From the sequence record SRR20825006_2499: 43,963 bases of DNA; one strand, written 5' to 3'. Position 1 is the first letter of the stretch; every line of letters starts with the position of its first letter. This document shows positions 20,033-43,963 of this stretch, piece by piece. The position numbers and the translations under genes were made by a program. The notes beneath the pieces were generated by a model. It worked only from the letters and a program-made list of their open reading frames with translations, was not told the DNA's origin and searched no databases.

Positions 20033-20050
20033 AAAACTAAAAACAAACAT

Positions 20051-20803: not shown

Positions 20804-20805
20804 GG

Positions 20806-23254: not shown

Positions 23255-23278
23255 CGTATTTATTTTTATCTATTCGTC

Positions 23279-26752: not shown

Positions 26753-26812
26753 TAAAATGACTAACTCTTAGAAAATGGTTGAACTAGTTTTTCTTCATAA
26801 AGACATTTTTAA

Positions 26813-27973: not shown

Positions 27974-27988
27974 TTTGAGTATTTAATA

Positions 27989-28018
27989 GTATTACAAATC
28001 AAAATTATAATACCCTTA
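27989..28018 (-). promoter_or_regulatory. Promoter region of fecR-susC-susD
   Basis: Minus strand reads TAAGGGTATTATAATTTTGATTTGTAATAC. It contains a TAATTTTG -7 box (28000..28007) and an AAGGG...TGTA pattern that may be an ECF promoter (inferred). Confidence 0.45.
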
Positions 28019-28034
28019 TTTTTTTTAGCTTTTT

Positions 28035-28067
28035 TTTGTCAAATTCACTTTTATTAACATAAATTTG
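28035..28067 (+). promoter_or_regulatory. Complete sigma-A promoter for the ECF sigma gene
   Basis: TTTG-N21-TAAATTTG (-33 and -7 elements). Confidence 0.65.
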
Positions 28068-28096
28068 AGGTTTAACAACCTGCCAACCCACAATTT

Positions 28097-28669
28097 ATGA
28101 TTTACAATAATTATGAAATTTTTATAAATAGCTTAAAAAAAGGAGATGAAAAAGCCTATGAATATTTAGTAGATAAATACTATCGAAAAATATATGCATA
28201 CGCTGTAAGCTTAATAAACGACAAGGTTATTGCAGAAGATATTGTTCAAAATGTATTATTAAAGACATGGCAGTATCGAAAGAAATTAAATAAGAATTTT
28301 TCTATTCAGAGTTTTCTCTATAAATCTGTTTACAACGAATTTGTTAATACCTATCAAAAAAGTAAAGCCACCACCTATTTGCATTATAAATATTTAGAAA
28401 GCCTAGAAGAAATTACTACAAGTATAGATGATTCTAAAATTGAAAATTTCTTTAGAATAGTTACAGAAGAAATTGAAAAATTACCGCCTAAATGCAAAGA
28501 TGTTTTTATGTTAAGTAAAATTGAAGGTCTTACCAATATTGAAATTTCCGAACATTTAGATTTATCTATTAAAACTGTAGAAGCGCAAATAACAAAGGCA
28601 TATAGTAAGTTAAGAAATAGATTGGGAGAACAATACAAAGTATTATTTTTATTTACATTGGTAAACTAA
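28097..28669 (+). CDS. ECF sigma-70 factor (Bacteroidetes PUL type)
   Basis: AEDIVQNVLLKTW region 2; LPPKCKDVF...EISEHLDLSIKTVEAQITKA region 4; divergent from fecR. Confidence 0.93.
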   Translation: MIYNNYEIFINSLKKGDEKAYEYLVDKYYRKIYAYAVSLINDKVIAEDIVQNVLLKTWQYRKKLNKNFSIQSFLYKSVYNEFVNTYQKSKATTYLHYKYLESLEEITTSIDDSKIENFFRIVTEEIEKLPPKCKDVFMLSKIEGLTNIEISEHLDLSIKTVEAQITKAYSKLRNRLGEQYKVLFLFTLVN

Positions 28670-28670
28670 A

Positions 28671-28710
28671 AAAGATCCTCCTTTTAGAAAAAAGAGGACC
28701 TTTATTTTTT
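28671..28710. terminator. Imperfect intrinsic terminator between convergent genes
   Basis: AAAGATCCTC...GAGGACCTTT followed by ATTTTTT. Confidence 0.55.
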
Positions 28711-28722
28711 AAGTTGGTTAGT

Positions 28723-29244
28723 TTATTTTCCGCCTTTCAACTCGTCTTGCCAAGCATGTAACTCTACCCACTTCCCTTCGTAAGCTAATTGTGCTTGTCT
28801 TGGCCAAGTCCCAGGTTTGTGTATTTCGTATGCCTTTCCACCAGATTTTAAAACTTCTTCACATTTTTCTACACTACACTCAGAAAGTCCTTTCCAAGTG
28901 GTAATGCCTTTAGCGTGAAATAATAGTTCAATTTTAGGCCCTATTCCTTCCACAATTTTAAGGTCGTCTTGTTTTATTTTTTTTCCATAAGTAGCCTTAG
29001 CTAATGCAGCATCAAACGGAATTAAATTTAAAGTTGTGTTTTCAGTTTTTGAACTTACAGAAGGACTAGGTTTGGCTGCCAATTTAGACCTACAATCGGT
29101 AAGGTCGGCTTCCAATTTGTCGTATTTTTTTTGCCAAGCTTCAATCTCGGCAGTATTATTTCTAGAAGATAACCTCCCTAGTAAATAACCTAAAATTGCG
29201 CATATAACGCCTACTATTAATGGAATAAGTAAACACCAGTTCAT
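28723..29244 (-). CDS. Membrane-anchored protein with coiled coil and C-terminal HhH-like (DUF4332-like) domain
   Basis: N-terminal TM segment, short coiled coil, DDLKIVEGIGPKIE helix-hairpin-helix, WPRQAQLA. Confidence 0.65.
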   Translation of the reverse strand: MNWCLLIPLIVGVICAILGYLLGRLSSRNNTAEIEAWQKKYDKLEADLTDCRSKLAAKPSPSVSSKTENTTLNLIPFDAALAKATYGKKIKQDDLKIVEGIGPKIELLFHAKGITTWKGLSECSVEKCEEVLKSGGKAYEIHKPGTWPRQAQLAYEGKWVELHAWQDELKGGK

Positions 29245-29263
29245 ATATATAAATTTTGGATGA

Positions 29264-30160
29264 TTAGTTCTTAATTGTAATTACAGTTCTTCTATTTTTT
29301 GCTCGCCCTTCGTTCGTGTTATTATCTGCTATAGGCTCCGTTTCTCCCCTTGAAATGGTTTCAATATTTTCAGAAGAAATACCATTTCTTACCAAATAGG
29401 TTTTTATAAATTCTGCTCTTTCTTTTCCTAAAACCTTATTATTCTCTGCGTTTCCTGTGGTATCGGTATGACCAATAATTTGGACTGAAACATCATCAAC
29501 CTTATCCATAGCCTGAACAATACTTAAATACTTAGCCCGTTGCTCCTCTGTTAAGGTAATAGTACTTCTGCCAGTCTCAAAGTATAATACAATTGGATTC
29601 TTTTTAATATTTTCTACAACCGCTTCGGCATCTTTAAAATTAGAATCGTTTGTTATAACAAAAGAAACAGGCCCTACATAGATACTATCTTGAACTTTTA
29701 GATTTGGTTTTAATTCTCCATAAGTATTAATTTTTTTAGAAGAAACCCCTTTTGCTATCAAATGGTTTTTAACTGCATTTGCTCTGGCTAATCCTAAGTT
29801 TGGAAAAGCAGAATTATTTTCTTCAGCAATTGAATAAAAGCCTGTTACATCAATAAATTTTGCACCATCTCCATTAAGATAATCTTTCAATTGAGCAATT
29901 CCTTCTTCTACCCCAGCACCAAGAGGCCTAAGAATAATAAAATCAGATTTATTAAAATTGAAATTATCATTCGTTTTATAATTAAAATTTCCTGTGCTGT
30001 CTATTATTACAAGTGGGTTAACAACCATTGAAGTTTCTTTTGGAGCTATAGTCTCTATATTTTCTATTGGGGTTGCTTCTACCTCACAACATAAAATCCA
30101 ATTAAAAAAAGAGCCAACTATAATGGTAATAATTATACCAACTAAGTAGAGAGATTTCAT
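29264..30160 (-). CDS. OmpA-family protein with tandem OmpA_C-like domains
   Basis: N-terminal anchor; degenerate first domain (VTGFYS...LGLARANAVK); canonical second domain (GHTDTTG...LGKERA...NRRT). Confidence 0.85.
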   Translation of the reverse strand: MKSLYLVGIIITIIVGSFFNWILCCEVEATPIENIETIAPKETSMVVNPLVIIDSTGNFNYKTNDNFNFNKSDFIILRPLGAGVEEGIAQLKDYLNGDGAKFIDVTGFYSIAEENNSAFPNLGLARANAVKNHLIAKGVSSKKINTYGELKPNLKVQDSIYVGPVSFVITNDSNFKDAEAVVENIKKNPIVLYFETGRSTITLTEEQRAKYLSIVQAMDKVDDVSVQIIGHTDTTGNAENNKVLGKERAEFIKTYLVRNGISSENIETISRGETEPIADNNTNEGRAKNRRTVITIKN

Positions 30161-30193
30161 AGGATATCACTTTGGTTTATAAATTCTTACACT

Positions 30194-30201
30194 CAAATTT
30201 A
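30194..30201 (-). promoter_or_regulatory. sigma-A -7 element for the OmpA operon
   Basis: TAAATTTG on the minus strand, 33 nt upstream of the ATG. Confidence 0.55.
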
Positions 30202-30549
30202 GTCAATTTCTTAAATTGTAGGGCTAAATATGTAAAAAACTTTGAGTCAAATAGTTATGAAAATGTAAAATTCTTCATTCTAACTTTTAAATTTTGTATC
30301 TTTAATAGAAAGCGTTGGGATTAAAATCTTTTTGTATTAAACTGAAAAAACATTTAGACATAAACTCATCAGCAAATAAAGAGCACGTTTTGGAGCGTTA
30401 AAATCTCAATTAATAAGTAAAATAAGAGGTTTTAAAACCAAAAAAATACTGCATAACCTCCTTTTAAAAAGAGAATTGCAGAAAAAGCTTAAAGTATTCG
30501 TATATAATTTTTAGAAATACGATATTTACCAACATAAAATCAGAACAGC

Positions 30550-31539
30550 ATGTCACTACATAATATTAGACTTGAAGTAATGCAAACTATAGAAAAGAGA
30601 GTTGATTCTTTTCTAGAGCAATATCTTATTCCTGCTGACCAAATATGGCAACCTACAGATTTCTTACCAGATTCTCAAGGTGAAAACTTTTTTGAAGAAG
30701 TGAAAAAAATAAGAGGAGAGGCACAAGAATTAGGATACGATTTTTGGGTAGTATTGGTTGGAGATACAATTACAGAAGAAGCTTTACCTACCTACGAATC
30801 TTGGTTGATGGATGTAGAAGGCGTAGACCAACATGCAAGAAATGGTTGGTCAAAATGGGTTCGTCATTGGACTGCAGAAGAGAACAGACATGGAGATGTT
30901 TTAAATAAATATTTATACCTCTCTGGCCGTGTGAACATGAAAGAAATTGAAGTTACTACACAACATATGATTGCTGATGGTTTTGATATAGGTACCGGAA
31001 GAGACCCATATAAAAACTTTGTTTATACTTCTTTCCAAGAATTGGCTACCAATATTTCTCATAAAAGAGTTGGACAATTAGCTAAGAAGAAAGGAAACCC
31101 TATGTTGGCAAAAATGTGTAACATAATTGCTGGAGATGAGATGAGACACCATTTGGCATACCGTGAGTTTGTAAAAATTATTTTTGATTACGACCCTAGT
31201 GAAATGATGATTGCCTTTGCTGATATGATGAAGCGGAAAATTGTAATGCCAGCACAATTTGTTAGGGAATCTGGAGACCATATTGGAAGTGCTTTTGAAA
31301 ACTTCTCTAATGCGGCACAACGCCTAGGTGTTTACACAACTTTTGATTATATCAATATTTTAGATCGATTAAACCAATATTGGGAAATCGATAAAATTAG
31401 AGAGTTAAATGATAAAGGTGAAAAAGCTAGAGATTACCTAGTAAGATTACCTGAAAGATTAAAACGTATTTCAGAAAGAATGTCTACTCCCCAAGATCCA
31501 CATATTTTTAAATGGGTGGAAGCTAATGGAGTTTTATAA
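30550..31539 (+). CDS. Acyl-ACP desaturase (soluble di-iron family)
   Basis: WQPTDFLP, TEEALPTY, WTAEENRHG, TSFQE, IAGDEMRH (two E/D-x-x-H iron motifs). Confidence 0.92.
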   Translation: MSLHNIRLEVMQTIEKRVDSFLEQYLIPADQIWQPTDFLPDSQGENFFEEVKKIRGEAQELGYDFWVVLVGDTITEEALPTYESWLMDVEGVDQHARNGWSKWVRHWTAEENRHGDVLNKYLYLSGRVNMKEIEVTTQHMIADGFDIGTGRDPYKNFVYTSFQELATNISHKRVGQLAKKKGNPMLAKMCNIIAGDEMRHHLAYREFVKIIFDYDPSEMMIAFADMMKRKIVMPAQFVRESGDHIGSAFENFSNAAQRLGVYTTFDYINILDRLNQYWEIDKIRELNDKGEKARDYLVRLPERLKRISERMSTPQDPHIFKWVEANGVL

Positions 31540-31680
31540 TCTGTACTTTTCAGATAAAGACGCAAGACCGTTTCGCTGCAAAAAAAGTAAAGACAAGTTG
31601 TTACTGGGATAAAATATTCCGCTTTCAATTTTTAATAGTTAAGAGGAAATATCTCCCGAAAACAGCTATCTAAAAAATAA

Positions 31681-31732
31681 TTAATCTCTAAATGTATCCT
31701 GAGCTTGTTGAAGGATAACATTTAGAGATTAA
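31681..31732. repeat. Long stem-loop with a REP-like core between convergent genes
   Basis: TTAATCTCTAAATGT / ACATTTAGAGATTAA arms enclose ATCCTGAGCTTGTTGAAGGAT. Confidence 0.6.
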
Positions 31733-31793
31733 ATTTAAAAGCTAGATAAGCTCATTTTAACAACTACAAATTGCATCTCAGACCTTTTTATAG

Positions 31794-33293
31794 CTAATTT
31801 ATCCAGAGTACTGCATTATCTGAGATAGAATAATTATTTAATTTACTATGGGCTCTGACTTTAATTAAATGAACTCCTTTAGCCAAATTAGTTGGTATAT
31901 TTAAACGCCATAAATGTTTACTTTGATGTATTGGCTTTGGTATTGCTCCAATAGCAGCATTTTTATATCTTCCTAATTCTTGAATTTTATACAGCCTTTT
32001 TTGAACAGGAGAAATGCCGTTATAGAGTTCCATTGGAATCCATAAATTTTCATCAAATGATACTTCAACACTTGTTTCTGGAGGAGCGGAAAAAACATTT
32101 GCATAAATATAAGGCTCATTAAGAACATTTAATGCAGTATCCCATTCTCTATTTTCTGGAACAGTAATTTGCATTTGTTTACTAAAAGGAGCTCCAGAAA
32201 CTTTATACCTTAATTTATACGATGCTTTATTAGTATCTAAAAACCAATATCCTTTTGGAGTGCCATCATACATTAATGCAAAAGGAATCCCATTTAAATC
32301 GTGAGGTCCTTGCCACCATGCCCCGCAAACTGCACCCGCAACTAATTCATGCACTTGAGATTTACCTTCTTCTCTATTAAAATACTTTTGATATTGTGTA
32401 TGTGTATGCCCAGTTGCTATAAAAACTTCTTTAAAATCTTTAAAAAGAGCGATAAAAGCATCCTTATCTTCCATTTCTTCAACAGGAATATGCATAAAGA
32501 TTTTTATTGTCTCAAATTGATCTTTCTTTAATTCAATAAGGTGGTTTATAAATTCTTTCTGCATATCATCTATTTTACCAACATAATCTTTATTTGTAGT
32601 TGGATAAATATTGTTAAGAACAAGAAATAACTGCTCCCCAAATTCAAATGCATAATAAGAAGGCCCAAAAAAAGACTTGAAAGTACGATCTCGGTTAGAT
32701 ATTAATTCTTGATGATAATCCATATCATGGTTTCCCATAACATAAAATATAGGAGAATTTATTAAGCCAAGAGTTTTAGATAATGGATCGAAAATATCAA
32801 GATTATCAAAAGATAAATCTCCTAATGGAACTATAAAATCGGGTTTATTATCTACTAATTCTTCAACCACCAATTTCCCTACATGGTAAACATCATCTAT
32901 AATATCAGCCTGAGGGTCTCCAAGCAATGCAACCTGAAGACTATCGGGTTCTTTATTAGGATACAATGGAAATGAATAATCCTTTAAATTTTCTGCATCA
33001 GAAGCAAAAAAATAACGTCTTCCATTATCAACTTTAGAAATATACCCTGAAGGCTTTATCAAAAAAACAGGATAGTTTTGTATTTTTTCAATTTTATAGG
33101 CTCCTTTGGCATCTGTAGTTACAATATTCTGTCCATTAGAAACCCCTATATTACTTAATAATTGTTCCCCGCTATCATAAATCCCATTTGCATTTTCATC
33201 TACAAAAACTACTCCTTCAATTGTTTTATTTACTTGACCAAAACAAACAAGAGGAACTACAAAAAGTAGATACTTAATACACTGTTTCATCAT
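31794..33293 (-). CDS. Exported calcineurin-like metallophosphoesterase (MetallophosN/C architecture)
   Basis: Signal peptide (CFG|Q), GVVFVDENANG, GDPQ, GDLSFD, GNHD, HIP, GHTH, GAVCGAWW, DGTPKGY; ATGA-coupled to the upstream gene. Confidence 0.88.
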   Translation of the reverse strand: MMKQCIKYLLFVVPLVCFGQVNKTIEGVVFVDENANGIYDSGEQLLSNIGVSNGQNIVTTDAKGAYKIEKIQNYPVFLIKPSGYISKVDNGRRYFFASDAENLKDYSFPLYPNKEPDSLQVALLGDPQADIIDDVYHVGKLVVEELVDNKPDFIVPLGDLSFDNLDIFDPLSKTLGLINSPIFYVMGNHDMDYHQELISNRDRTFKSFFGPSYYAFEFGEQLFLVLNNIYPTTNKDYVGKIDDMQKEFINHLIELKKDQFETIKIFMHIPVEEMEDKDAFIALFKDFKEVFIATGHTHTQYQKYFNREEGKSQVHELVAGAVCGAWWQGPHDLNGIPFALMYDGTPKGYWFLDTNKASYKLRYKVSGAPFSKQMQITVPENREWDTALNVLNEPYIYANVFSAPPETSVEVSFDENLWIPMELYNGISPVQKRLYKIQELGRYKNAAIGAIPKPIHQSKHLWRLNIPTNLAKGVHLIKVRAHSKLNNYSISDNAVLWIN

Positions 33294-35089
33294 AGCTTTA
33301 CATTTAACACCTCTAGAATTTTAGTATAAATTTCTGTATTCTCATAAACTCCACTAAACACTTCCGATTTTGGCCCATAAGCAAATACTGGAACCATTAC
33401 TCCTGTATGATCGTGAGTTAAAAAATCTCCTTCTATTTGATGTTTTTCTATATCGCCCTGTGGAATTCCAAAACCAGAAGTTTCATGATCCGCAGTTATA
33501 ATAACTAAGGTGTTTTTATGAGTATCGGCAAATTTTATAGCTTCGGTTATAGCTCTATCAAAATCGATTCCTTCCGTAATAATTCCACCAGTATTATTAG
33601 TGTGACCAAAAGAATCTATTTTTGCAGCTTCAACCATCAAAAAGAAAGGATTGTTATCTTTATTTAAAAATCCAAGCGATTGTTTTGTTAGCTCTGCAAG
33701 ATCATTTTGTCTCCCGTCTAGAATAGAAGGCACATCATTTTCCGCTATAAAATAACCTATTCTATCTGCTTTTGATGTTTCTATTTTTGTTTGATCTTTT
33801 ATAACAGTAAATGGAGACTCTTTTATGATGGAATTGAAATGATTTTTATTTCCTCCAACAAATAGAGTAAGATTACTTTTCCATAAATCTGCTGCAATCT
33901 GAGCTGTAGAATCTCGGTCTGCTCGGTGAGCGTAGAAAGCTGAAGGTGTTGCTCCTGTAACAGCATCTGTAGTAATAACACCTGTTTTATAGTTATGTTT
34001 ATAAAGCACCTCTGTAATATTGTCCAAAGGTTTCCCAACACTATCAACACCAATAAAACGATTGTTAGTTTTAGAACCTGTTGCCAAAGCAGTCCCAGCA
34101 GCAGCAGAATCCGTGGTAAAATCGTCCGCAGATTGTGTTCTTATTAAGCCAATATTTTTTAATTTGGTTAGCGTAAGATTTCCGCCATTTGCTAAAGCAG
34201 CAGCACTAATTTGTGTTAAACCGTTTCCATCTCCAATTAATAAAATAACATTTTCAACTTTACTAGATGCTTCATCTGAAACGAAACTAGGATTATAAAC
34301 TTCAGAAAAAATAGTTGTTAAAGATTCTCTGTGTTGTATAGATGACAAATACCTCTCACAATCATAAGGATTATCTGTATTAATAAAATCTACCCCAATA
34401 TTATAAAATGCCTTCCAAGCTGATTTACTATCGGGAGTTCCCCAAAAACGAAAAGGCTTATTATAATTATGCGCTTTATTAACTACTGCTTCCACTTTAT
34501 TAAGTTCAGCAGAAACCATTCTTCCTTTACCGTTCCAAACCGAATAATCTGAATAGGGAAGGCTTATTAAGGCTACTTTTTCCCATGCTTCATTAGAGAT
34601 AGGAGCTAAGCTTTGATAATCAAAATAAATAAAACTAGGGTATTTTTTATAATCTTCAGGTGCAGGTCTATTACCAGATATAACAAATTTAACATGAGGA
34701 TTTTCAAGTATGCTTGGATACTGTTCTAACTGTTCTACAACGGCTGCCAAGGTAGTTTTTGCATCAGATTTTATATCAATTAAAAACTGAATGTTCTGTT
34801 GTGAATCAAGATTTAAAGAAAGGGCTGTTTCAAAAGGCTCTAAATACAATTTTTTAAAAGTTAAATGGTCTTGTATTTCATCCTCGGCATGAGCAACAAA
34901 CAATTCATTGTCTACTAAAAAAACATCAATCTCAATACTATTGGCGCCATTAGCAAAAGCATTCCAAAAGGGTACTTTTTGTTGGTAGTCGTTATGAGAA
35001 TGTATTTTATAACTTGAAGGCATCTGTGCCTGAGCTAAAATAACATTGAGTAGTACTACTAGAATTTGTAAACGTGTTATGTAATGCAT
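33290..35089 (-). CDS. GDPD/PI-PLC-like phosphodiesterase fused to alkaline phosphatase (PhoA family)
   Basis: N-half: HSHNDY, SIEIDV, VAH, LIDIK, RFWGTPD, DFINTD. C-half: IGDGNG, TDSAA (catalytic Ser), ATPSAFYAH, EAAKIDSFGH, TADHET, DHTG. Confidence 0.88.
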   Translation of the reverse strand: MHYITRLQILVVLLNVILAQAQMPSSYKIHSHNDYQQKVPFWNAFANGANSIEIDVFLVDNELFVAHAEDEIQDHLTFKKLYLEPFETALSLNLDSQQNIQFLIDIKSDAKTTLAAVVEQLEQYPSILENPHVKFVISGNRPAPEDYKKYPSFIYFDYQSLAPISNEAWEKVALISLPYSDYSVWNGKGRMVSAELNKVEAVVNKAHNYNKPFRFWGTPDSKSAWKAFYNIGVDFINTDNPYDCERYLSSIQHRESLTTIFSEVYNPSFVSDEASSKVENVILLIGDGNGLTQISAAALANGGNLTLTKLKNIGLIRTQSADDFTTDSAAAGTALATGSKTNNRFIGVDSVGKPLDNITEVLYKHNYKTGVITTDAVTGATPSAFYAHRADRDSTAQIAADLWKSNLTLFVGGNKNHFNSIIKESPFTVIKDQTKIETSKADRIGYFIAENDVPSILDGRQNDLAELTKQSLGFLNKDNNPFFLMVEAAKIDSFGHTNNTGGIITEGIDFDRAITEAIKFADTHKNTLVIITADHETSGFGIPQGDIEKHQIEGDFLTHDHTGVMVPVFAYGPKSEVFSGVYENTEIYTKILEVLNVKL

Positions 35090-35104
35090 AGTGTATAAAT
35101 AAGT

Positions 35105-35135
35105 AAAAGATGCTGCTTTTTACACAGCACCTTTT
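35105..35135 (-). terminator. Intra-operon hairpin after susD
   Basis: Minus strand reads AAAAGGTGCTG-N9-CAGCATCTTTT; the single mismatch is a G-U pair on the coding strand. Confidence 0.6.
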
Positions 35136-35179
35136 CGGAATTAAAAAAAATCAAACTAATCCTTTTCTTTTTATATTGG

Positions 35180-36766
35180 TTACCATCCTTTATTTTGAGG
35201 GATTCCAGAGGATTCAATTACTCTATTTGGGATAAGCCAAACGTGCATAGACGAAGGGTCAAAGCTTCTTGCTGGCCATACAATTTCTGATGTATAAGGA
35301 GAATCTGGATTAGATCTATCCTCATAAATTCTACCATGTAATGGCTTGCTATACACTTCTTGTGCATCTCCCCAACGAACTAAATCGAAATGTCTATTTG
35401 CAAATTCTCCTGCAAGTTCTACCCTTCTTTCATGTTTTAAATCTTCCATTGTTGCATTAGAAATAAGTGGTAATCCTGCACGATTTCTCACTGCATTTAA
35501 TGGAGCATCTCCATTTTTACCTTGCATAATTAATGCTTCAGATTTAATTAATAATATTTCAGCATATCTAAGTATAGGAACATTATAAGTAGTAGTTGGA
35601 TTATCTCCGTTTGTATTTAAATAAGTTCCAACAGGGTTTTCCATTCCATATTCATACATGTATTTATTGAATTGAAATCCAGATAATGAATTTTCCGACT
35701 GGTAACGTCTTGTTTCTCCAAAATACTTAAATTCATCTCCGAAATTTAAGATTGTAACCCCTCTTCTTGGATCTTCCTCTTCAAATTCTTCATATAATTC
35801 TTCTGTTGGAGTATAATATCCCCATCCATTATATTTACCCCATCCTTTATTTTCTAGCATAACTCCTGGTAATTTACTTCCATCGTCAACTCCAGAATCT
35901 ACAGACCAAATATATTCTGAAGTCCAGTTATTTAAATGGCTATGTAACAACCTATAATCTTCATCAGGATTATCTGTATCTATTAATGCTCTTCCAGATC
36001 CAGAATTTGTTACTGCATCAGCGTATTTTACTGCAAGGTCAAATTTAGAAGCATCATACTGTCCCCAATACAAATATGTTTTTGCTAGGTATCCTAATGC
36101 TGCGTCTTTATGAGCTCTTCCATAATCTTCAGTATTATACTCGGTAAATAATGGTAATAAATCTGCCGCCTTAGTTAGATCTTCCACAATAAAACTGTAA
36201 TTCTCTATAACACTTGCAGGTCTTGAGTAACTTCCAGCTTCATTATCCATATTTTCTTCAGTAATAATTGGCACACCTCCATTTTCTCCATTATCTCCAT
36301 ACGAATGAGCTAACCAGAAATAATGAAAACCACGCATAAAATAGGCTTCTCCTAACAAACGATTTTTTAAATTCTCATCAATATCCATTGCAGGGACATT
36401 ACGTATAATATCATTAGCTCTTCGTATAATTTTATACGACTGAGGGTACATCCAATATATATAACCTTCATCTCCAGTAATATTGAAGTTTTTTATGTTA
36501 TCTGCTTCTGCTTTAATACGTCCAGTTATCATATCATCAGACGCATTAATGAACCAGAAAAAACCTCTAGAAAACATATCTTCATCTTTCATATAAAAAT
36601 ACATACTATTAGTTGCCTCTATAGCATCTTGTTGAGACTGCCAAAAATTCTCATAAGATATATTTCCTTTGGGCTCTAAATTTGTAAAATCATCTGAACA
36701 AGATGTGCTGAAAATACTTAAGCATATTAGCAGAAGTATTATTTTATTATTTATATTTTTTTTCAT
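35180..36766 (-). CDS. susD: RagB/SusD family lipoprotein
   Basis: TSCSDDF lipobox, GEAYFMRGFHYF, GRAHKDAA, LRYAEILL, HERRVELAGE, QNKGW. Confidence 0.93.
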   Translation of the reverse strand: MKKNINNKIILLLICLSIFSTSCSDDFTNLEPKGNISYENFWQSQQDAIEATNSMYFYMKDEDMFSRGFFWFINASDDMITGRIKAEADNIKNFNITGDEGYIYWMYPQSYKIIRRANDIIRNVPAMDIDENLKNRLLGEAYFMRGFHYFWLAHSYGDNGENGGVPIITEENMDNEAGSYSRPASVIENYSFIVEDLTKAADLLPLFTEYNTEDYGRAHKDAALGYLAKTYLYWGQYDASKFDLAVKYADAVTNSGSGRALIDTDNPDEDYRLLHSHLNNWTSEYIWSVDSGVDDGSKLPGVMLENKGWGKYNGWGYYTPTEELYEEFEEEDPRRGVTILNFGDEFKYFGETRRYQSENSLSGFQFNKYMYEYGMENPVGTYLNTNGDNPTTTYNVPILRYAEILLIKSEALIMQGKNGDAPLNAVRNRAGLPLISNATMEDLKHERRVELAGEFANRHFDLVRWGDAQEVYSKPLHGRIYEDRSNPDSPYTSEIVWPARSFDPSSMHVWLIPNRVIESSGIPQNKGW

Positions 36767-36794
36767 AATTAAGTTTTTATAGTAATTATCCTTT

Positions 36795-39700
36795 TTAAAA
36801 TGAGAATGACAATCCTAAAGAGTATGTTTTAGATAATGGATACCTTCCAACATCTAAACCGTTTCCACCAACTTCAGGATCCATTCCAGAATAATCTGTT
36901 ATTGTAAATAAGTTTTCACCTGAAAAGAATAAGCGTAATGTAGAAGAAGCACTTATTTTATTCATCACTTGAGATGGTATTGTATACCCAAGTGTTACAT
37001 TTTTCAGTCTCAAATAAGATCCATTTTCAAGATACCAACTAGAGGCATTCCCAAAGTTAGCATTGTTATCACTAGTAGATATCCTTGGAATATCTGTATT
37101 TGTATTTTCTGGAGACCATGCATTTAAAACTCTATTGTCTAGATTATACCCCTGTAATGCAGCGTTATATGTGCTGAATTTATACGCATTGAAAACCTCT
37201 ACACTTCCAACTCCTTGGAAAAGAGTATTTAAATCGAAGCCTTTATAATTTAAATTAAAACCAAAGCTATAAGTCAAATCTGGAATATAGCTTCCCATAA
37301 AAGTTTTATCATCATTATCTATCTTCCCATCTTCATTGGTGTCGACAAATTTAAAGTCGCCCGGAACAGCATTAGGTTGAATAAGTTTTCCATCCTTTTG
37401 ATGAGCATCTATTTCTGCTTGACTTTGGAAAATTCCTGCATAAGGAATTAGATTATATGAATACAATCCTTGTCCAACTTCAGATCTAAAAGGAGTAAGC
37501 ACCCCTCTAACATTATCTGTATGGTTTATATAGTCAACTCCAGATTCATTATATCCATCTAGATTAATCAACTCATTACTTAAGGTGCTTAAATTTGCAA
37601 ACACCCCAAACTTCAATCCATTAGTAAGCGTTTTATTATAATTTACAGCAAACTCCCATCCTTTATTTTCTACTTCTCCTCCATTAACATCTGCAGAAGA
37701 GGTTCCTTGGTGTAAATCTTCCAATCCAGGCACAATCATTCCCTTTGTATTTTTCTTAAAATAATCTACTGTTAAAGTTAGACTGTTCTTAAAAAATCCA
37801 GCATCTAAACCAAAATCTATAGATTCTGATGTTTCCCATTTAAGATTTGGATTGGATTGTCTTCCAACAAAAACTCCTTTATAATCTAAACTTCCATTTT
37901 CACCCAATATTACCTGAGTAGTATTTAAAGGAACATCAAAAGAATAATACCCTACCGAATTAATATTTCCAATTTGACCCCATGATGCTCTCAATTTTAA
38001 ATTATTAATGGTATTGCTATTGAAAAATGATTCGTTAGAAATATTCCAACCAGCAGAGGCAGCAGGAAAATAATCAGATTGGTTATCTGTTGCCAATCGA
38101 GATGTTTCGTCTCTACGAATACTTGCAGAAATAAAATACCTACTATCAAAATTATACATTAATCGTCCAATTGCAGAAGTTAAAGCGTCTTCATAAACTT
38201 CTGTTATAGGAGTACGTATTTCTGTAGCATTCCCCATGTATTGATTAAAACTACCTTCATTACTAAATCCTCTTCCTTCTTGGTAGTAATATTCATAATT
38301 CACTTTTTGAGCAGAATGAATGGCTGTAAGATTTAAATTATGACTCCCAAAAGTCTTAGCGTATGTAAGTTGGTTATCCCAAACCCACTGTTTTCTATTT
38401 GAATAACTTTGATATAAGAAGTTTTGCTCATTAGTTCTCCCAGATTCTGGCACTCTAGGAACAAATCTTTTATAATCTGTATTTGTATAATTATAGCTAT
38501 AAGAAGATTTAAAACTCAACCCATCTAAAATATCATATTTACCATACACATTAGCATTAATAAAGTTTACTGGATTTGTAGTTGTAGGTCTAAGTAAAAG
38601 CGCCATAGGATTATAAACATCTCCATAAGCCCCTGCAAATTGTGACAAATCTGCTGGTGCAACTCCATGAAATTCTCCTTGCTCATTATATACAGGAGCT
38701 GCAGAAGGCATATAAATTGCATTTATGATTGTTCCTGAATACCCACTTGATGTATTTGTTCCTGTTGCTTCTGTTGAAGAATAGTAAACATTTTCTCCAA
38801 CCGTAAATTTATCGGTAACATCTATGTCTGTTTTAACTCTAAAAGAATAACGCTCTGATTGTGTTCCTACAAGCACCCCTTCTTTTTTATTATAATTAAA
38901 AGAAGTTAAATAATTTACATTATCTGAAGCACCATTTACATTCACATTTGCATTATATATTGGGGCATCTCTAAAAATTTCGTCAACCCAATCGGTTCTT
39001 GTTACTTGCCCCCATGGATTTTCGGTTGCATTATGAGCAGATTGTCTAGGTTTTCCAGAATTATCGGCTGCCAAATTATATATATCTGCCTGTTGTTTAG
39101 CGTTTAATGCTGAAGGTAAATTAGTTGCAGATTGAAATGCCGTGTACATATCTACGCTAACTACTGGCTTCCCTTTTATTCCGTTTTTAGTTTCAATTAC
39201 AATAACTCCAGATGCTGCTTGTGCCCCATAAATTGCCGCAGATGCCGCGTCTTTTAACACAGACACCGATTTAATATCGTTTGGATTTATTGGGGGACCA
39301 TAATAAGGAACTCCATCTACAACAGTTAATGGCGATTCATCTGCAAGAGACCCCTGACCTCTAATTACAATTCTACCTGCCGCCGATGGATCTCCACCTT
39401 GCTGTAACACAGTTACCCCAGGTAAATTACCCTGTAAAAAATCTGTGAAATTAGTTACTGGGCGACTACTAATAGTCTCTATATTCTCCACCTTTGCTAT
39501 TGCAGAAGTGATGTCTCCCTTTTTTGCGGATCCATAACCAATTAACAGCACTTCTTCAAGAGCATTTATTTCTTCCTCCATTTCAATATTTAAATGGCTT
39601 CCTTCTACATATTTAAGAGTTGTGGACTTATACCCTATATAAGAAACAGTAATTACACCACTATTTGTAGCTACATTTACCGTAAAATTTCCATCAAAAT

Positions 39701-39863
39701 CTGTAGTTGTTCCTTTAGAAGATTCATCATTCGGAATTATGGTTGCTCCTGGAATTGGCATCCCATCTATTTTGGAGACAACGGTTCCTTTAATTATAGT
39801 TTGTGCCGATGCGCCAAGGCAAAAAAATGAGCACAAAATAATTAGTAAAAATTGTTTTTTCAT
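36795..39863 (-). CDS. susC: SusC/RagA TonB-dependent transporter
   Basis: Signal peptide from ATG 39863 (MKKQFLL...ASA|Q), LEEVLLIGYG, KDAASAAIYG plug, C-terminal Phe; no STN domain. Confidence 0.95.
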   Translation of the reverse strand: MKKQFLLIILCSFFCLGASAQTIIKGTVVSKIDGMPIPGATIIPNDESSKGTTTDFDGNFTVNVATNSGVITVSYIGYKSTTLKYVEGSHLNIEMEEEINALEEVLLIGYGSAKKGDITSAIAKVENIETISSRPVTNFTDFLQGNLPGVTVLQQGGDPSAAGRIVIRGQGSLADESPLTVVDGVPYYGPPINPNDIKSVSVLKDAASAAIYGAQAASGVIVIETKNGIKGKPVVSVDMYTAFQSATNLPSALNAKQQADIYNLAADNSGKPRQSAHNATENPWGQVTRTDWVDEIFRDAPIYNANVNVNGASDNVNYLTSFNYNKKEGVLVGTQSERYSFRVKTDIDVTDKFTVGENVYYSSTEATGTNTSSGYSGTIINAIYMPSAAPVYNEQGEFHGVAPADLSQFAGAYGDVYNPMALLLRPTTTNPVNFINANVYGKYDILDGLSFKSSYSYNYTNTDYKRFVPRVPESGRTNEQNFLYQSYSNRKQWVWDNQLTYAKTFGSHNLNLTAIHSAQKVNYEYYYQEGRGFSNEGSFNQYMGNATEIRTPITEVYEDALTSAIGRLMYNFDSRYFISASIRRDETSRLATDNQSDYFPAASAGWNISNESFFNSNTINNLKLRASWGQIGNINSVGYYSFDVPLNTTQVILGENGSLDYKGVFVGRQSNPNLKWETSESIDFGLDAGFFKNSLTLTVDYFKKNTKGMIVPGLEDLHQGTSSADVNGGEVENKGWEFAVNYNKTLTNGLKFGVFANLSTLSNELINLDGYNESGVDYINHTDNVRGVLTPFRSEVGQGLYSYNLIPYAGIFQSQAEIDAHQKDGKLIQPNAVPGDFKFVDTNEDGKIDNDDKTFMGSYIPDLTYSFGFNLNYKGFDLNTLFQGVGSVEVFNAYKFSTYNAALQGYNLDNRVLNAWSPENTNTDIPRISTSDNNANFGNASSWYLENGSYLRLKNVTLGYTIPSQVMNKISASSTLRLFFSGENLFTITDYSGMDPEVGGNGLDVGRYPLSKTYSLGLSFSF

Positions 39864-40000
39864 GTTAGATTTTTGTTGATTGTTCAAGCGCAAATCTATA
39901 TCCATGCCGATGCTAAAAGGAGGACTTTAGATACTAAAAAGTATACTTTAGTTACAAATGACACCACAAATAAGCTTGATTTGGTGCATTTTAGATGCAG

Positions 40001-40037
40001 AAACATTAAGGTAACATTGAGAAAACAAATAGGTAAC
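40001..40037. promoter_or_regulatory. Direct repeat, candidate HTCS/AraC operator upstream of susC
   Basis: AAACA-N3-AGGTAAC at 40001..40015 and 40023..40037 (22-bp period). Confidence 0.55.
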
Positions 40038-40086
40038 TATATAAATTCTTCTTGGGTTTGCCCAGAAGTACTTTGTTAAAGTACAA

Positions 40087-43000
40087 CTACTTATAAGATT
40101 TTGGACTGGTTTTATAATACTTCTTAAATAGGCGACTAAAGTACTTCGGGTCGTTAAAACCACATTCATAACTAACTTCCGACACGTTCAACCTTTTACT
40201 TTTTAATAGCAAAGCCGCCTTTTGTAAACGCAAATTAATTATAGTTTCTGAAGGTGAAACATCTAAAACTTCTTTAAATACACGATAACATTTTGTCCTA
40301 GAGATATCCAATTCTTTTATCAAACTATCTACATTAAAATTAGAATTAGAAAGTTCTTTCTTAATAACTTCTATTGCATTTTGCACCAATTCCTCATGCG
40401 GAGAAGACCCTAATATTGTATTTGCTATTTGCAGCCCGTCTGCATGATTTTCATAAGTATTTTTGGCTTTGTATTGAGCAATTATTTTTTTTATTTGCTT
40501 TTGAAAAAAAGACGGACTTACAGGCATATAAATCATTAAATCTGCTCCGTTCTCAATAATTCGCTCTTGTAAATTAACATCCACCTTTTCTAAAACCCAT
40601 ACCACAGGAGCTTTTAGGGTTTTAGTACTCTTTAAAAATGTAGTTATTTCGGTATCAAAAAAACGATTATAGGCAATCAAAGCATGAATTTCTTTTTTAT
40701 TTACTATGGATGAAACAGTTTTTGAAGTGTTTTCAAAAACAAGAGTATAATTAGAGTTGTTTAGAAGCTGACCCACAATTTCATTATCTTCTTTTTTACA
40801 AAAAACTAAAATTGTATTTCCTTTAATAACCCCTTCATCAGAAGCAGTATCAAAATGCTCCATATAAGAAATACTAGAACTTATAAGTTCTTTAGACGTA
40901 GTAATAGGAATATTTGTTTGTAATGAAAAAGCAGTAGCTATATTAGTCTCACAAGTTCCATTTAAGTCATTCAATAAAATTGAAAATGCTTTAAAATATG
41001 GGCTAAATAATGTTATACTATTCCATTTTTCAATTAAAATTGGACAGTTAGAATTTATAGAAAGTAATAAGGTATTGGTGCCTAAAGAAATACTTATATT
41101 GATACTGCTTTTTGGCGTAAGATATTTTATTATATCAGTAAAAATATACTGAAAAAGGAGCTTCAATCTAAGTACATCTACCTCTATAATAGTTGCTTCA
41201 TTATTCGATTTAAACTCAAATTTTACTTCCGTATCTTTTATTTCATCTAAATGAAGCTCAACTATTAACTGATTTACAAACGGTTCTATATCTATTTTAG
41301 AAAGGTAAGGTTTTCCTATTTTTTTAACTTGATCTAAATAATCCCACTCTGAAATCAAATTTATTAGATTGGTAATTTCTTTCTGTAAGTTAGTATTAAG
41401 ACTTCCTTGATGCTTAAGCTGATTAACATTTGATAAAATTCGGGACAACGGTTTTTTAAATTCAATTAAGATAAACTCCTTAAACTTATCCAATTCAAAA
41501 TCCTTATTTTTAATTTTGCTATGCAATTTTATCAACTCATTGCTCTTAGCCTCTATGGAGGCATTTGTTTCTTCTAAAGAATTTTTTTGAGAATTTATTA
41601 AACTTGTACGCTCTTCAATTTTCTTTTCCAGAATTATCTCTTTAAGCCTAGATTTTCTGTTATTGAATTTAATAATTCCTACAACTACAACTATTAATAA
41701 ACTCCCCATAAACATATAAAACCACCATGCCAGATAGAATGGGGTTTCAATTTTTAATGTAAAAAAGCTTGGAAGAATAGCCTCATCAATTTTAACAAAA
41801 AAATCATAGTCTCCAGAAGGGATATTCTCATACTTAATAGATGTATTAGTATAAAGCATCCATTCTTTATTATACCCCTTTAAACGATAAAAAATCTTTT
41901 TAGAACTCAGTCCATAATCTATAGGAATAATGTTTACAGAAATTTCATTTTTAGCATGTGGCTTTACTAACTTCTTACTAAAATTCTCCTGTCCATCTAC
42001 TAAAAGCTTAATATTTGGCGTAGGATTATTAATTACATAAGAATTTGGCTGAAAATAATTAAGACCGCTTATTCCTCCATAATAAAGGGTTTCTTCTGGT
42101 GCCTTATAAAAAGCTCCTTCAGAGAACTCATTATCTTGCAAACCATAATCTATAGGTATTTTATAAATTTCATAAGTTCCTGCATTAATTGCTACTATTC
42201 CTTTGGTGGTACTTGCCCAAAATTTATCTTTACTCTGCAAAACACTATATACCATATGGCTAGGCAAATTATTTGCCTCTGTTATAGTTTTAAAAACGCC
42301 TTTATCTAAATGATAGATACTAATTCCTCCTAAAGTAGAAATCCAATAGTTTTCTGAATTACTATCTCTAGTTATGTGGTATACACTATTTCCAGAAAGT
42401 CCTTTAGAAGCATCTATTTTTTCTATGTTTCCATTAATTTGGTTAAAAATAATAAGTCCATTTTTTTCAGTAGCTAAAAAAATAAGATCCCCATTAATTA
42501 AAACATTCCGAAAATGATACTTTGCTAATTTATCTTGATGTTCAAACTCAATAAAACTATTTTTTTTGGTATCATATTTTGCTAATCCACCCCAACATGT
42601 TATCCAAATATTATTATTTATATCTTCATAAAAATTATAATTTCTATTGTTCGGCAAGTTTTCTTCTAAATTTGCATCATAAAGCGAATAACCCTTACTT
42701 CCAATTTTTATTATCCCTGCGTAAGATCCTACCCAGATAGTCCCATCTGAAGCGGTATATAAACTTCTAATTCTATTCCAATCTGGATTTGAGTTTGCTT
42801 CTTTTATTTTATACGGAAGAAAATAATTTTCAGAATTTAACCTGTATACCAGTCCATTACTGTAATATCCTAACCATAACGTTTGGTTATCATCTTTTGT
42901 AATTGCCCGTATTGTTCCTTTTGGAAGATTTGGCTGTTTGGTAGGATGGGGTAAAATGGTGGTTATTTGTTGTGACTCATTATACACCATACTCAATCCG

Positions 43001-43749
43001 CCATCTTTATATCCGAGCCAGATATTTCCAAAGGCATCCTCATAAACACACTCTATTTCGTTTGTAGATAAACTATAAGGAGCATATACATCAAAGGTAT
43101 AGTGTTGAAAAGAGAGATTATTACTATTGGAAGTTCCAGATTTAAAATACAGTCCGTTACTCTCTGTTGCATACCATATATTATCCTTACTATCCAAAAG
43201 GATATCATTGATTTTAATATTAGGTTCTTTTTTAAGAAAATTTCTCTTTAAAGCTTCATATTTTTTATTTCCCAATGGGGTGTGAGAGTACTTTGGAAGC
43301 GCTAGCTGCTCTTTATCTGAGAGCGTATAATACATACTATCTAAAAGCACAATGGGAATACTGTCTTTAGAAAGGTAAAGACCATTTAATTGTTTTTTAA
43401 AATGAAAATTTTTAAACTTTCCATTCCCGATATATTTAGATACCGAATTATTATCTGTTCGGATCCAAATTTCTCCATTTTTATCTTTAATGAAGTTAAT
43501 AACTACATTTCCAGAAAGTGATAATGTATCTGCTATTTTATGCTTAAATACAGTTATATTATTTCCATTATAAATATTCAACCCATCCCAGGTTGCTATC
43601 CATATCCTCCCATCGTTATCACTAATAATATCACTTACGGAATTATTAGACAGTCCATCTTTGGTTGTTAAAGGCTTAAATTTTAAGTTTTGCGAAACAA
43701 GATTGCTGGAAATCAATAAAAAGATAAATACAAAACGAGTAATAAGCAT
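40087..43749 (-). CDS. Hybrid two-component-like regulator (beta-propeller sensor, Y_Y_Y, TM, degenerate kinase and receiver, AraC HTH)
   Basis: GLSNNSV / IWIATWDGL propeller repeats, YRLKGYNKEW Y_Y_Y domain, WWFY TM segment, intact AraC domain (SEVSYECGFNDPKYFSRLFKK). ATG 43749 preferred over TTG 43776. Confidence 0.9.
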   Translation of the reverse strand: MLITRFVFIFLLISSNLVSQNLKFKPLTTKDGLSNNSVSDIISDNDGRIWIATWDGLNIYNGNNITVFKHKIADTLSLSGNVVINFIKDKNGEIWIRTDNNSVSKYIGNGKFKNFHFKKQLNGLYLSKDSIPIVLLDSMYYTLSDKEQLALPKYSHTPLGNKKYEALKRNFLKKEPNIKINDILLDSKDNIWYATESNGLYFKSGTSNSNNLSFQHYTFDVYAPYSLSTNEIECVYEDAFGNIWLGYKDGGLSMVYNESQQITTILPHPTKQPNLPKGTIRAITKDDNQTLWLGYYSNGLVYRLNSENYFLPYKIKEANSNPDWNRIRSLYTASDGTIWVGSYAGIIKIGSKGYSLYDANLEENLPNNRNYNFYEDINNNIWITCWGGLAKYDTKKNSFIEFEHQDKLAKYHFRNVLINGDLIFLATEKNGLIIFNQINGNIEKIDASKGLSGNSVYHITRDSNSENYWISTLGGISIYHLDKGVFKTITEANNLPSHMVYSVLQSKDKFWASTTKGIVAINAGTYEIYKIPIDYGLQDNEFSEGAFYKAPEETLYYGGISGLNYFQPNSYVINNPTPNIKLLVDGQENFSKKLVKPHAKNEISVNIIPIDYGLSSKKIFYRLKGYNKEWMLYTNTSIKYENIPSGDYDFFVKIDEAILPSFFTLKIETPFYLAWWFYMFMGSLLIVVVVGIIKFNNRKSRLKEIILEKKIEERTSLINSQKNSLEETNASIEAKSNELIKLHSKIKNKDFELDKFKEFILIEFKKPLSRILSNVNQLKHQGSLNTNLQKEITNLINLISEWDYLDQVKKIGKPYLSKIDIEPFVNQLIVELHLDEIKDTEVKFEFKSNNEATIIEVDVLRLKLLFQYIFTDIIKYLTPKSSINISISLGTNTLLLSINSNCPILIEKWNSITLFSPYFKAFSILLNDLNGTCETNIATAFSLQTNIPITTSKELISSSISYMEHFDTASDEGVIKGNTILVFCKKEDNEIVGQLLNNSNYTLVFENTSKTVSSIVNKKEIHALIAYNRFFDTEITTFLKSTKTLKAPVVWVLEKVDVNLQERIIENGADLMIYMPVSPSFFQKQIKKIIAQYKAKNTYENHADGLQIANTILGSSPHEELVQNAIEVIKKELSNSNFNVDSLIKELDISRTKCYRVFKEVLDVSPSETIINLRLQKAALLLKSKRLNVSEVSYECGFNDPKYFSRLFKKYYKTSPKSYK

Positions 43750-43938
43750 ATTAGAATAAATTCGTATAAATATCAACCTTGCAAATTACTCTTTTTTATG
43801 TTATCTCCCTTTTAAATTAATGTTACACAATTATCAACTATTATAATTATTCATTAATGTCCGAATAAAGATACAAGACCGCTTCACTATAAGAAAAAGG
43901 ACAAAGACTATATCTTAACTATCTTAAAATAAATAAAC

Positions 43939-43963
43939 TACCTCGAGGCAAGCCTACGAGGTA
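43939..43963. repeat. GC-rich palindrome at the window end (REP or IS200/IS605-end-like)
   Basis: TACCTCG-AGGC-AA-GCCT-A-CGAGGTA hairpin in AT-rich surroundings, truncated by the window edge. Confidence 0.5.

Follow-up and report, generated by a model that had tools for sequence, protein, structure and literature searches.

We describe a gene on the minus strand of sequence record SRR20825006_2499 (43,963 nucleotides; hereafter the window, meaning this whole stretch) that encodes a 1220-residue relative of the regulators called hybrid two-component systems (HTCS), a relative in which the kinase and receiver modules persist as folds but every canonical phosphorelay site has been replaced. In Bacteroidota, nutrient-uptake loci are governed mainly by HTCS proteins, whose signaling is assumed to need His-to-Asp transfer. 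The protein, which we term a pseudo-HTCS, belongs to a clade that extends over two bacterial families, is under purifying selection, and heads a cassette of SusC, SusD, and phosphatase genes. Judging from its sequence and from structural models, we consider it likely that the pseudo-HTCS is a phosphorylation-independent, one-component-like derivative of the HTCS that controls an operon resembling the Pus2 locus of Flavobacterium johnsoniae.

Domain architecture and lost phosphorelay residues

The pseudo-HTCS frame begins with an ATG at 43749 and contains no internal stop codons; an alternative in-frame start, a TTG at 43776, would add nine residues. A preliminary description of this DNA, made from the sequence alone, had reported an uninterrupted 1220-residue frame with a propeller sensor and a well-formed AraC domain, and both the list of open reading frames (ORFs) with its translation and the Pfam matches to Reg_prop (seven stretches, E 1.8e-30) and HTH_18 (E 1e-18) bear this out, with the gene on the minus strand. 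The sensor aligns by phmmer with solved HTCS sensor domains (4a2l, E 1.8e-50; 3v9f, E 9.5e-38) as far as residue 654; 4a2l is the sensor structure of the canonical HTCS BT4663. The Y_Y_Y domain scores 24.4 bits against a cutoff of 26.6; the alignment to the solved sensors spans this region, and 16 of 20 aligned family members match Y_Y_Y at E ≤ 1. The signal peptide and the membrane segment were read from the sequence by eye. At the C terminus, HTH_18/HTH_AraC match residues 1145–1219, and NCBIfam contributes AraC-type matches only. For HisKA, HATPase_c, and Response_reg, there is no Pfam match in the protein even at E ≤ 1. Among the features that define a canonical HTCS, the protein thus has the Reg_prop sensor and the C-terminal AraC-type helix-turn-helix, and it lacks HisKA with its His, HATPase_c with its N, G1, and G2 boxes, and the acidic pair, Asp, Thr/Ser, and Lys of the receiver. 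The sources consulted label these proteins only as “AraC family” or “two-component regulator propeller domain-containing”.

Residue equivalences in the middle region were fixed by profile–profile alignment (hhalign) of the cytoplasmic parts of the family with those of four canonical HTCS, which match with Prob 100 and E 1.5e-61 over 508 columns. The phospho-His is replaced by Ile762. The N-box Asn residues correspond to Tyr868 and Asp872, with the N-box Lys (Lys875) retained, the G1 box (DxGxG) reads S-N-C-P-I, and the G2 box and lid are lost in a 15-residue deletion. In the receiver, Cys984-Lys985 stand for the acidic pair, Tyr1027 (followed by Asn1028) for the phospho-Asp, Leu1053 for the Thr/Ser, and Met1075 for the Lys, whereas the following Pro1076 is retained. 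All of the altered motifs quoted in the preliminary description are present (FILIEFKK at residue 759, FQYIFTD at 866, ILVFCKK at 980, ALIAYN at 1023, and MIYMP at 1072; the His-to-Ile change is residue 762, codon 41464..41466), and in the alignment with canonical HTCS the phospho-accepting positions hold neither His nor Asp.

The folds of the middle region persist. An AlphaFold model of the cytoplasmic part, built from a 14-row alignment with a predicted local distance difference test score (pLDDT) of 80, contains in order a long helical hairpin (helices 2–77 and 84–111 in model numbering, which is residue minus 699), an α/β domain, a five-stranded receiver fold, and the AraC domain. We used this model in place of a single-sequence prediction of residues 681–1220, whose mean pLDDT of 43 made it unusable. 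Foldseek matches the DHp–CA part to PDB entries for ShkA (6qrj, E 6e-11), HK853, and WalK (the three ranging from E 6e-11 to 5e-9), as well as AdeS and the pseudo-kinases DivL (4q20) and RetS (6dk8); the kinase-like domains of phytochrome and ETR1 are also among the structural matches. With VIA-align, the pseudo-CA domain superposes on the ETR1 catalytic domain 4pl9 (Z 15.7, root-mean-square deviation (rmsd) 2.4, 139 residues), the pseudo-receiver on 3cfy (Z 16.6, rmsd 2.8, 127 residues) and 4l85 (Z 16.4, rmsd 2.2, 118 residues), and the AraC domain on 6swi (Z 16.5, rmsd 1.7, 105 residues). A complex prediction with two copies of residues 700–961 scored 0.28 against a mark of 0.32, which carries no weight either way on dimerization.

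Sequence searches agree with this assignment. The solved HTCS receiver–AraC fragment 12aw_A aligns by phmmer to residues 987–1220 (E 4.5e-22). An exhaustive phmmer search with residues 690–1110 against 1.84 billion representatives returned 37 matches, about 25 of which belong to the family (1199–1261 residues, or fragments); those at E ~1e-4 are true histidine kinases, and all eight that were scanned carry HisKA and HATPase_c, one of them being a canonical HTCS. A word-indexed homolog search with the middle region found the protein itself and one Zobellia protein only, which the exhaustive search and a genome scan showed to be a limit of that method. On alignment and modeling, then, the middle region is a DHp, CA, and receiver scaffold that is predicted to be dead: the DHp–CA fold without autophosphorylation residues qualifies it as a putative pseudo-histidine kinase with predicted inactivity, and the receiver fold with Tyr1027 in place of the phospho-accepting Asp qualifies it as a putative pseudo-receiver. 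The earlier claim that every phospho-site is gone while domain order and folds remain is upheld, with order and folds borne out by hhalign, AlphaFold, Foldseek, and VIA-align.

A conserved clade under purifying selection

The genome scan, with one genome per species, gave at least 600 candidate stretches; the best 80 were kept and represent 79 loci, of which 76 hold family members. These come from the Flavobacteriaceae (Flavobacterium, Zobellia, Cellulophaga, Tenacibaculum, Polaribacter, Wenyingzhuangia, Arenibacter, Maribacter, Aquimarina, and others) and from the Cyclobacteriaceae/Cytophagales (Echinicola, Algoriphagus, Belliella, Lunatimonas, and others). An end-to-end alignment takes in 20 representatives, and HisKA, HATPase_c, and Response_reg are absent in all 20, among 25 Pfam families listed at E ≤ 1. 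A sensor-domain tree built without rows L112, L180, and L182 places 75 members in a single clade, with a Shimodaira–Hasegawa-like support of 100, which suggests one origin of the pseudo-HTCS. The residues tabulated below show that the loss of phospho-sites is common to the whole clade. The distribution of the family is sparse. It occurs in 13 of 401 sampled genomes of the window’s family and in 5 of 401 sampled genomes of the phylum, all five within the window’s family; eight of 10 genomes of one genus carry it, and the regulator is found in none of the three genomes of the window’s own genus within the 401-genome family sample.

We surveyed the key positions in 42 non-identical members (45 collected, three duplicates dropped). 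No member has a His within three residues of the phospho-His site, and the column itself is Ser in 26 of them, with Ile762 in the window protein. The phospho-Asp column is Tyr in 41 of 42 and the receiver Lys column Leu in 38, Met in three, and Phe in one, with Lys in none. The N-box Asn column (872) is acidic in 40 members (Asp in 26, Glu in 14), residue 1054 is Glu in 37, and the receiver Thr/Ser column is Ser in 30 members and Leu in the window protein. The same residue pattern is seen in all 75 loci tabulated (L110 lies outside the filter, L112 is cut by a contig end, and L149 ends early). The conservation of the replacement residues Tyr1027, Glu1054, and Asp/Glu872 argues for a new, fixed function.

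Two positions bear on whether phosphate might still be accepted elsewhere. His743, which lies 19 residues upstream of the canonical His site on the same helix, is shared by 70 of 76 members and also occurs in the canonical HTCS of a Saccharicrinis locus (L179, described below), and the residue after Tyr1027 is Asn in 25, Gln in nine, Asp in seven, and His in one of the 42 members. The conservation of His743 makes a non-canonical acceptor formally possible; His743, or in some members the Asp after Tyr1027, would then receive phosphate from a kinase acting in trans or from a small molecule. We regard this as very unlikely, given that the loss of the N, G1, and G2 motifs together with the lid deletion makes phosphorylation in cis implausible, the receiver has none of the acidic pair, Asp, and Lys that catalyze phosphotransfer, and the window protein has Asn rather than Asp at 1028. 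Moreover, of the four other canonical HTCS in the alignment, one has Ser in the His743 column and three are gapped there. We infer that the pseudo-HTCS works in the absence of any phosphorylation.

The gene is intact and selected. Its frame, of 1231–1268 residues in these relatives, is open without stops in 13 of 13 sampled carriers and in eight of eight carriers of one genus. For the within-genus pair L068/L069 (dS ~1), the ratio of nonsynonymous to synonymous substitutions (dN/dS) is 0.024 for DHp, 0.070 for CA, 0.036 for the receiver, 0.078 for the sensor, and 0.007 for AraC. Among 28 within-genus pairs, 12 gave no dS owing to saturation; all 16 estimable pairs have a whole-gene dN/dS of 0.03–0.12. 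Sensor values are 0.05–0.15. Values between genera are not given because synonymous sites are saturated there. With intact frames and a dN/dS of 0.02–0.07 in the dead domains, the dN/dS check that the preliminary description had proposed supports its view that the gene is not a pseudogene. It had named orthologs with intact sites combined with neutral decay here as grounds against that view; a relative with intact sites does exist, but purifying selection is found in place of neutral decay.

It could still be asked whether the protein is a functionless, decaying remnant of an HTCS, since three of its domains are no longer recognized by Pfam, the nearest genome lacks the whole locus, and two of the 76 relatives look truncated (L143, with a 1117-residue frame, and L149, with a 1056-residue frame). 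Against this stand the intact frames of the sampled carriers, the low dN/dS of the very domains that have lost their catalytic residues, the confidently predicted folds, and replacement residues that are conserved across two bacterial families, and we consider such a relic extremely unlikely.

The cassette, its candidate operator, and a proposed mechanism

The genes downstream of the regulator encode SusC, SusD, a GDPD_2–alkaline phosphatase fusion (GDPD-PhoA), and a metallophosphoesterase (Table 1), so that “phosphoester uptake locus”, as the preliminary description had it, is a fair label. The order regulator–SusC–SusD–GDPD-PhoA is kept in 13 of 13 sampled loci, with identities to the window proteins of 57–69% for SusC, 70–79% for SusD, 54–59% for GDPD-PhoA, and 39–43% for the regulator, which is conserved far less well than the transport and enzyme proteins. 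Among the 76 family loci, which come from named genomes, SusC lies directly downstream in 70, of which 40 have the window’s type and 30 a second type of 988–1005 residues (most 989) at ~31% identity. The GDPD-PhoA phosphatase is present in 67 of the 76 and is followed by a metallophosphoesterase homolog in 17. Exceptions to the linkage include L112 and L145, which lie at contig ends, L154, where an extra SusCD pair is inserted, and L132, which has a different phosphoesterase. The nearest genome, G001, is syntenic with window positions 26000..31619 at 87% identity; the synteny ends at ~31619 and the whole locus, 31619..43800, is absent, which makes it an accessory locus in this lineage.

Related cassettes occur under other regulators. 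At L179, one of the three non-family loci of the genome scan, a fully canonical HTCS with all key residues present (Pfam scores of 1.2e-13 for HisKA, 1.9e-30 for HATPase_c, and 1.1e-22 for Response_reg) lies directly upstream of SusC (52% identical to the window’s), SusD (63%), an alkaline phosphatase, and a metallophosphoesterase. In the tree, rooted on four other HTCS, it branches beside the pseudo-HTCS clade, although this sister placement is weak because the outgroups are few and the branches long. A SusD at least 47% identical to the window’s is found in nine of 401 phylum genomes, eight of them without a pseudo-HTCS. Five of those eight loci are headed by an extracytoplasmic function (ECF) sigma factor and FecR as identified by Pfam, one (L194) has ORFs of the same sizes, and two have no recognizable neighboring regulator. 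Canonical HTCS, ECF sigma/anti-sigma pairs, and pseudo-HTCS thus stand at homologous loci, and the cassette is served by three kinds of regulator. The earlier speculation that an ATP-free relay suits a phosphorus-scavenging locus is not supported, as L179 and the five ECF sigma/FecR-headed loci indicate that the cassette also works with ATP-using regulators.

Between the regulator gene and susC, we observed a candidate operator of four direct-repeat units (Table 1), which lie 48–97 nt past the regulator stop codon. Allowing at most one mismatch per site within 260 nt of that stop, an AATGTTA-like pair 11 bp apart is present in 48 of 71 loci, with both SusC types, against a background of 63 of 12636 windows of the same loci (≤0.5%) in which the true sites are included. 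No such pair is marked at the canonical-HTCS locus L179 within the 150 nt printed. HTCS binding sites have been predicted as direct repeats ~21 bp apart (PMC3878776), an architecture that two 22-bp units of two half-sites each would fit, and the repeats are the putative binding site of the regulator. A second conserved element, for which relatives have the form TTTGAAAC..ACACC, lies just upstream of susC and may be a promoter or a second site. We also note a short inverted repeat, GTACTTT..AAAGTAC at 40068..40084, directly past the regulator stop, which may act as a weak terminator or attenuator between the two genes. A reading of the AATGTTA repeats as a Pho box finds no support: in five genomes, the pattern (one mismatch at most) is not more frequent than the reversed pattern used as control, and exact copies do not lie beside phosphate genes.

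We propose that an organophosphate imported by the adjoining SusC/SusD, or its breakdown product, would bind the periplasmic domain; our best guess at the ligand is a glycerophosphodiester or an inositol phosphate. The resulting change would travel through the membrane helix and the coiled coil to the DHp-like helices, presumably within a dimer, and the dead CA and receiver domains would serve as spacers, structural or allosteric, that govern where the AraC domains lie or how freely they move. These would bind the four 11-bp-spaced GTTA-type repeats and switch on the SusC–SusD–(GDPD-PhoA)–metallophosphoesterase operon. Signaling would accordingly be conformationally coupled, as the preliminary description had also supposed, and the protein an activator rather than a repressor.

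Several observations weigh against phosphorylation-independent control of this operon. In addition to the conserved His743, the Asp that follows Tyr1027 in some members, and the two shortened genes, the dead domains are the least conserved parts of the protein, with a mean pairwise identity of 30–35% compared with 42% for the sensor and 57% for AraC. Five members from Cyclobacteriaceae/Cytophagales have no adjoining SusCD. As to the operator, genome-wide counts of AATGTTA-N4-AATGTTA equal those of the reversed-pattern control, and in four genera (L070, L071, L072, and L074, in G115, G001, G028, and G138) exact copies are found in the intergenic space that separates aspS from the gene of a small MORN-repeat protein. 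Because G001 has these exact repeats and no regulator, another protein may bind such repeats.

Some loci without the cassette have neighbors of another kind. At L164 (Lunatimonas, 12753..19431), the pseudo-HTCS gene is followed by genes for a small AraC regulator, an AP_endonuc_2 TIM barrel, a GFO/IDH/MocA oxidoreductase, a short-chain dehydrogenase/reductase, and a major facilitator superfamily (MFS) transporter. ORF sizes at L165 (Lunatibacter, 12934..19645) match those at L164, a resemblance by ORF size only. The L164 gene set is reminiscent of inositol or sugar catabolism and may hint at the class of ligand. At L168, unrelated genes lie beside the pseudo-HTCS gene.

The dead modules might have a different role from that of spacers. 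They could mainly bind partners (PhoR, PhoB~P, or another protein) in the manner of DivL and RetS, with phosphate status arriving by protein contact. Foldseek returned both of those pseudo-kinases, the conserved replacement residues suggest a new surface, partner-dependent pseudo-kinases and pseudo-receivers are documented (PMC12632262), and Pus loci of F. johnsoniae are reported to be induced by phosphate depletion (PMC8115612). We nonetheless consider such a docking scaffold unlikely, as no conserved partner gene adjoins the regulator in the 76 loci and the sensor, being under purifying selection, is therefore in use. Likewise unlikely, in our view, is that the dead CA and receiver have been reused as a cytoplasmic ligand or partner module that reads phosphorus status through inorganic phosphate, a nucleotide second messenger, or PhoB~P, with a new site formed by Tyr1027, Glu1054, Leu/Met1075, Tyr868, Asp/Glu872, and His743. 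The protein would then be a two-input AND gate that joins “substrate outside”, sensed by the propeller, with “phosphorus need inside” in one polypeptide and with no phosphotransfer of its own. Cyclic di-GMP is the ligand of the ShkA pseudo-receiver.

The interdomain S/CHIP motif, which in canonical HTCS is described as keeping the AraC domain switched off until phosphorylation occurs (PMC11253607), is not kept in the pseudo-HTCS, where only its Pro survives in 33 of 42 members. This loss fits a different mode of gating. It also favors a constitutive binder or repressor, with the on-switch elsewhere (for example, PhoB) and the propeller as a ligandless anchor or relic, since departures from the motif have been associated with DNA binding that is independent of phosphorylation and, in the case of BT2391, with repression (PMC11253607). 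The sensor, however, is the second most conserved part of the protein and under purifying selection, and activating HTCS have this same architecture and place upstream of susC; we find a constitutive binder or repressor distinctly unlikely and favor phosphorylation-independent activation.

With canonical HTCS, the pseudo-HTCS shares the order and folds of its domains over the whole length, a homologous sensor, an AraC output domain, and the position directly upstream of SusC/SusD. It differs in having no phospho-His, no N, G1, and G2 boxes, no receiver acidic pair, Asp, and Lys, and no S/CHIP motif, and is ~100–190 residues shorter than the five canonical proteins compared (1304–1411 residues). 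BT4236 of Bacteroides thetaiotaomicron has Gln848 in place of the kinase His, and a phosphorylation-independent mechanism has been suggested for it (PMC11253607). Going by the description given there, BT4236 has a single His replacement, whereas in the pseudo-HTCS three modules are degenerate beyond recognition by Pfam and this degeneracy defines a clade.

Membrane-spanning one-component regulators, BguR of Formosa agariphila and SusR, have been proposed to act independently of ATP in marine Bacteroidota (bioRxiv 10.64898/2026.01.10.698779). Like the pseudo-HTCS, they are described as having a periplasmic propeller sensor, one membrane helix, and a cytoplasmic DNA-binding domain, with a Y_Y_Y domain where the pseudo-HTCS has a Y_Y_Y-like end. 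BguR (940 residues), however, is described as having no kinase or receiver domains and a GerE domain on a helical linker, and it serves β-glucan loci; the pseudo-HTCS retains a DHp–CA–receiver scaffold of ~400 residues with an AraC domain, which places it outside the BguR/SusR type, and it stands at phosphatase loci.

That two-component folds without catalytic residues serve allostery or partner binding is an established concept (PMC12632262). DivL, the kinase-like domains of plant phytochromes and ETR, the pseudo-receivers of ShkA and CikA, and ALR domains all keep their folds without catalytic residues, as the pseudo-HTCS does. Such losses usually concern a single module in a network where phosphorylation goes on, whereas in the pseudo-HTCS the kinase and the receiver appear dead in one polypeptide. 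We found no description in the literature searched of an HTCS clade that retains both as dead folds. The review of pseudo-receivers states that its sequence analyses are restricted to PF00072 (PMC12632262), and since the pseudo-HTCS receiver is too diverged for that family, surveys based on PF00072 would not count it; more generally, these proteins would escape counts of HTCS or pseudo-receivers that go by domain matches.

The closest parallel to the cassette itself is the Pus2 locus (PUSII; PusC2, PusD2, and PhoA1) of F. johnsoniae, reported to be induced by phosphate depletion and to contribute to growth on glycerophosphoinositol (PMC8115612; bioRxiv 10.64898/2026.09.03.749221). PhoA1 is described as a combination of pf00245 and pf13653 (PMC8115612), Pus2 as being under an ECF sigma/FecR-like pair, and PusC2 as carrying pf16344 (PMC8115612; bioRxiv 10.64898/2026.09.03.749221). 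The cassette described here likewise has a SusC/SusD pair followed by a PhoA with pf13653, a likeness of domain content. It differs from Pus2 in standing behind a pseudo-HTCS and in a SusC that carries neither an STN nor a FecR-type domain. We found no HTCS-type regulator for Pus loci in the literature searched, and the terms “hybrid two-component”, “HTCS”, and “AraC” are absent from the main texts of the two Pus papers, supplements aside. For organophosphate scavenging by marine and soil Flavobacteriaceae, ECF sigma/anti-sigma pairs are the regulators that have been described to date; the pseudo-HTCS and the repeats add a candidate regulator with a candidate operator.

The clade amounts to a natural experiment in which the HTCS architecture has been held for long, in two bacterial families, while the catalytic residues have gone and new ones have become fixed. 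It opens the questions of how far HTCS signaling is mechanical as opposed to chemical, what purposes beyond phosphotransfer the kinase and receiver folds serve, and how regulators are swapped on a fixed SusCD–phosphatase cassette.

Feature coordinates and genomic surroundings

The coordinates of the gene, its domains, the intergenic elements, and the downstream cassette are collected in Table 1.

Table 1. Features of the pseudo-HTCS locus, with positions in the window
Feature	Position	Strand	Residues or length	Basis
Pseudo-HTCS gene	40087..43749	(-)	1220 aa + stop	ORF list and translation, Pfam, 100% match to stored protein cluster
Periplasmic sensor, tandem Reg_prop propellers with Y_Y_Y-like end	41755..43689	(-)	~21–665	Pfam, phmmer
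Single membrane segment (WWFYMFMGSLLIVVVVGIIKF)	41665..41727	(-)	~675–695	Read off translation by eye
Coiled coil and pseudo-DHp helical hairpin, Ile762 for phospho-His	41320..41664	(-)	~696–810	hhalign, AlphaFold helices, Foldseek
Pseudo-CA (ATPase-like) domain	40894..41301	(-)	~817–952	hhalign, VIA-align to ETR1 catalytic domain 4pl9
Pseudo-receiver; C984-K985, Y1027, L1053, E1054, M1075 at five active-site positions	40441..40824	(-)	~976–1103	phmmer, hhalign, VIA-align
AraC-type DNA-binding domain	40090..40401	(-)	~1117–1220	HTH_18 E 1e-18, VIA-align to 6swi
Candidate operator, four GTTA-type direct-repeat units at 11-bp spacing (AGTTACC, TTGTTTT, ATGTTAC, ATGTTTC)	39989..40039	(-)		Alignment of 14 intergenic regions
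Second conserved intergenic element, ~21-bp repeat just upstream of susC (TTTGTAAC...TATAC / TTTTAGTATC...TCCTCC)	39919..39960	(-)		14-region alignment
SusC-type TonB-dependent transporter without STN domain	36795..39905	(-)	1036 aa	TIGR04056 E 2.9e-251, Pfam
SusD-type lipoprotein	35180..36766	(-)	528 aa	SusD_RagB, SusD-like_3
GDPD_2 and alkaline phosphatase fusion	33290..35089	(-)	599 aa	PF00245 E 1.4e-55, PF13653 E 1e-8
Calcineurin-like metallophosphoesterase	31794..33293	(-)	499 aa	MetallophosN, Metallophos, MetallophosC; 4-nt overlap with phosphatase gene

The window holds a second SusC/SusD pair (region 21740..28669), with a SusC that has an STN domain at 23279..26665 and a SusD at 21740..23254. 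Its control genes encode a FecR anti-sigma factor (26813..27973) and an ECF sigma factor (28097..28669), so the two main styles of regulator stand side by side in this stretch. Positions 11548..21633 encode a GMC oxidoreductase, a gluconate 2-dehydrogenase subunit 3, two xylose-isomerase-like TIM barrels, an MFS transporter of the nucleoside/H+ symporter type, two GFO/IDH/MocA oxidoreductases, and two 3-keto-disaccharide hydrolases, a cluster that looks like an oxidative (3-keto) glycoside pathway. A search for sequencing runs that contain the stretch listed no RNA run. Rfam has no match in 31000..43963 at E ≤ 0.1, which includes an element of ~85–120 bp at 43815..43963. Some 45 copies of this element, at 80–91% identity, are scattered over G001, and it looks like a small dispersed repeat of the repetitive extragenic palindromic (REP) or miniature inverted-repeat transposable element (MITE) kind.

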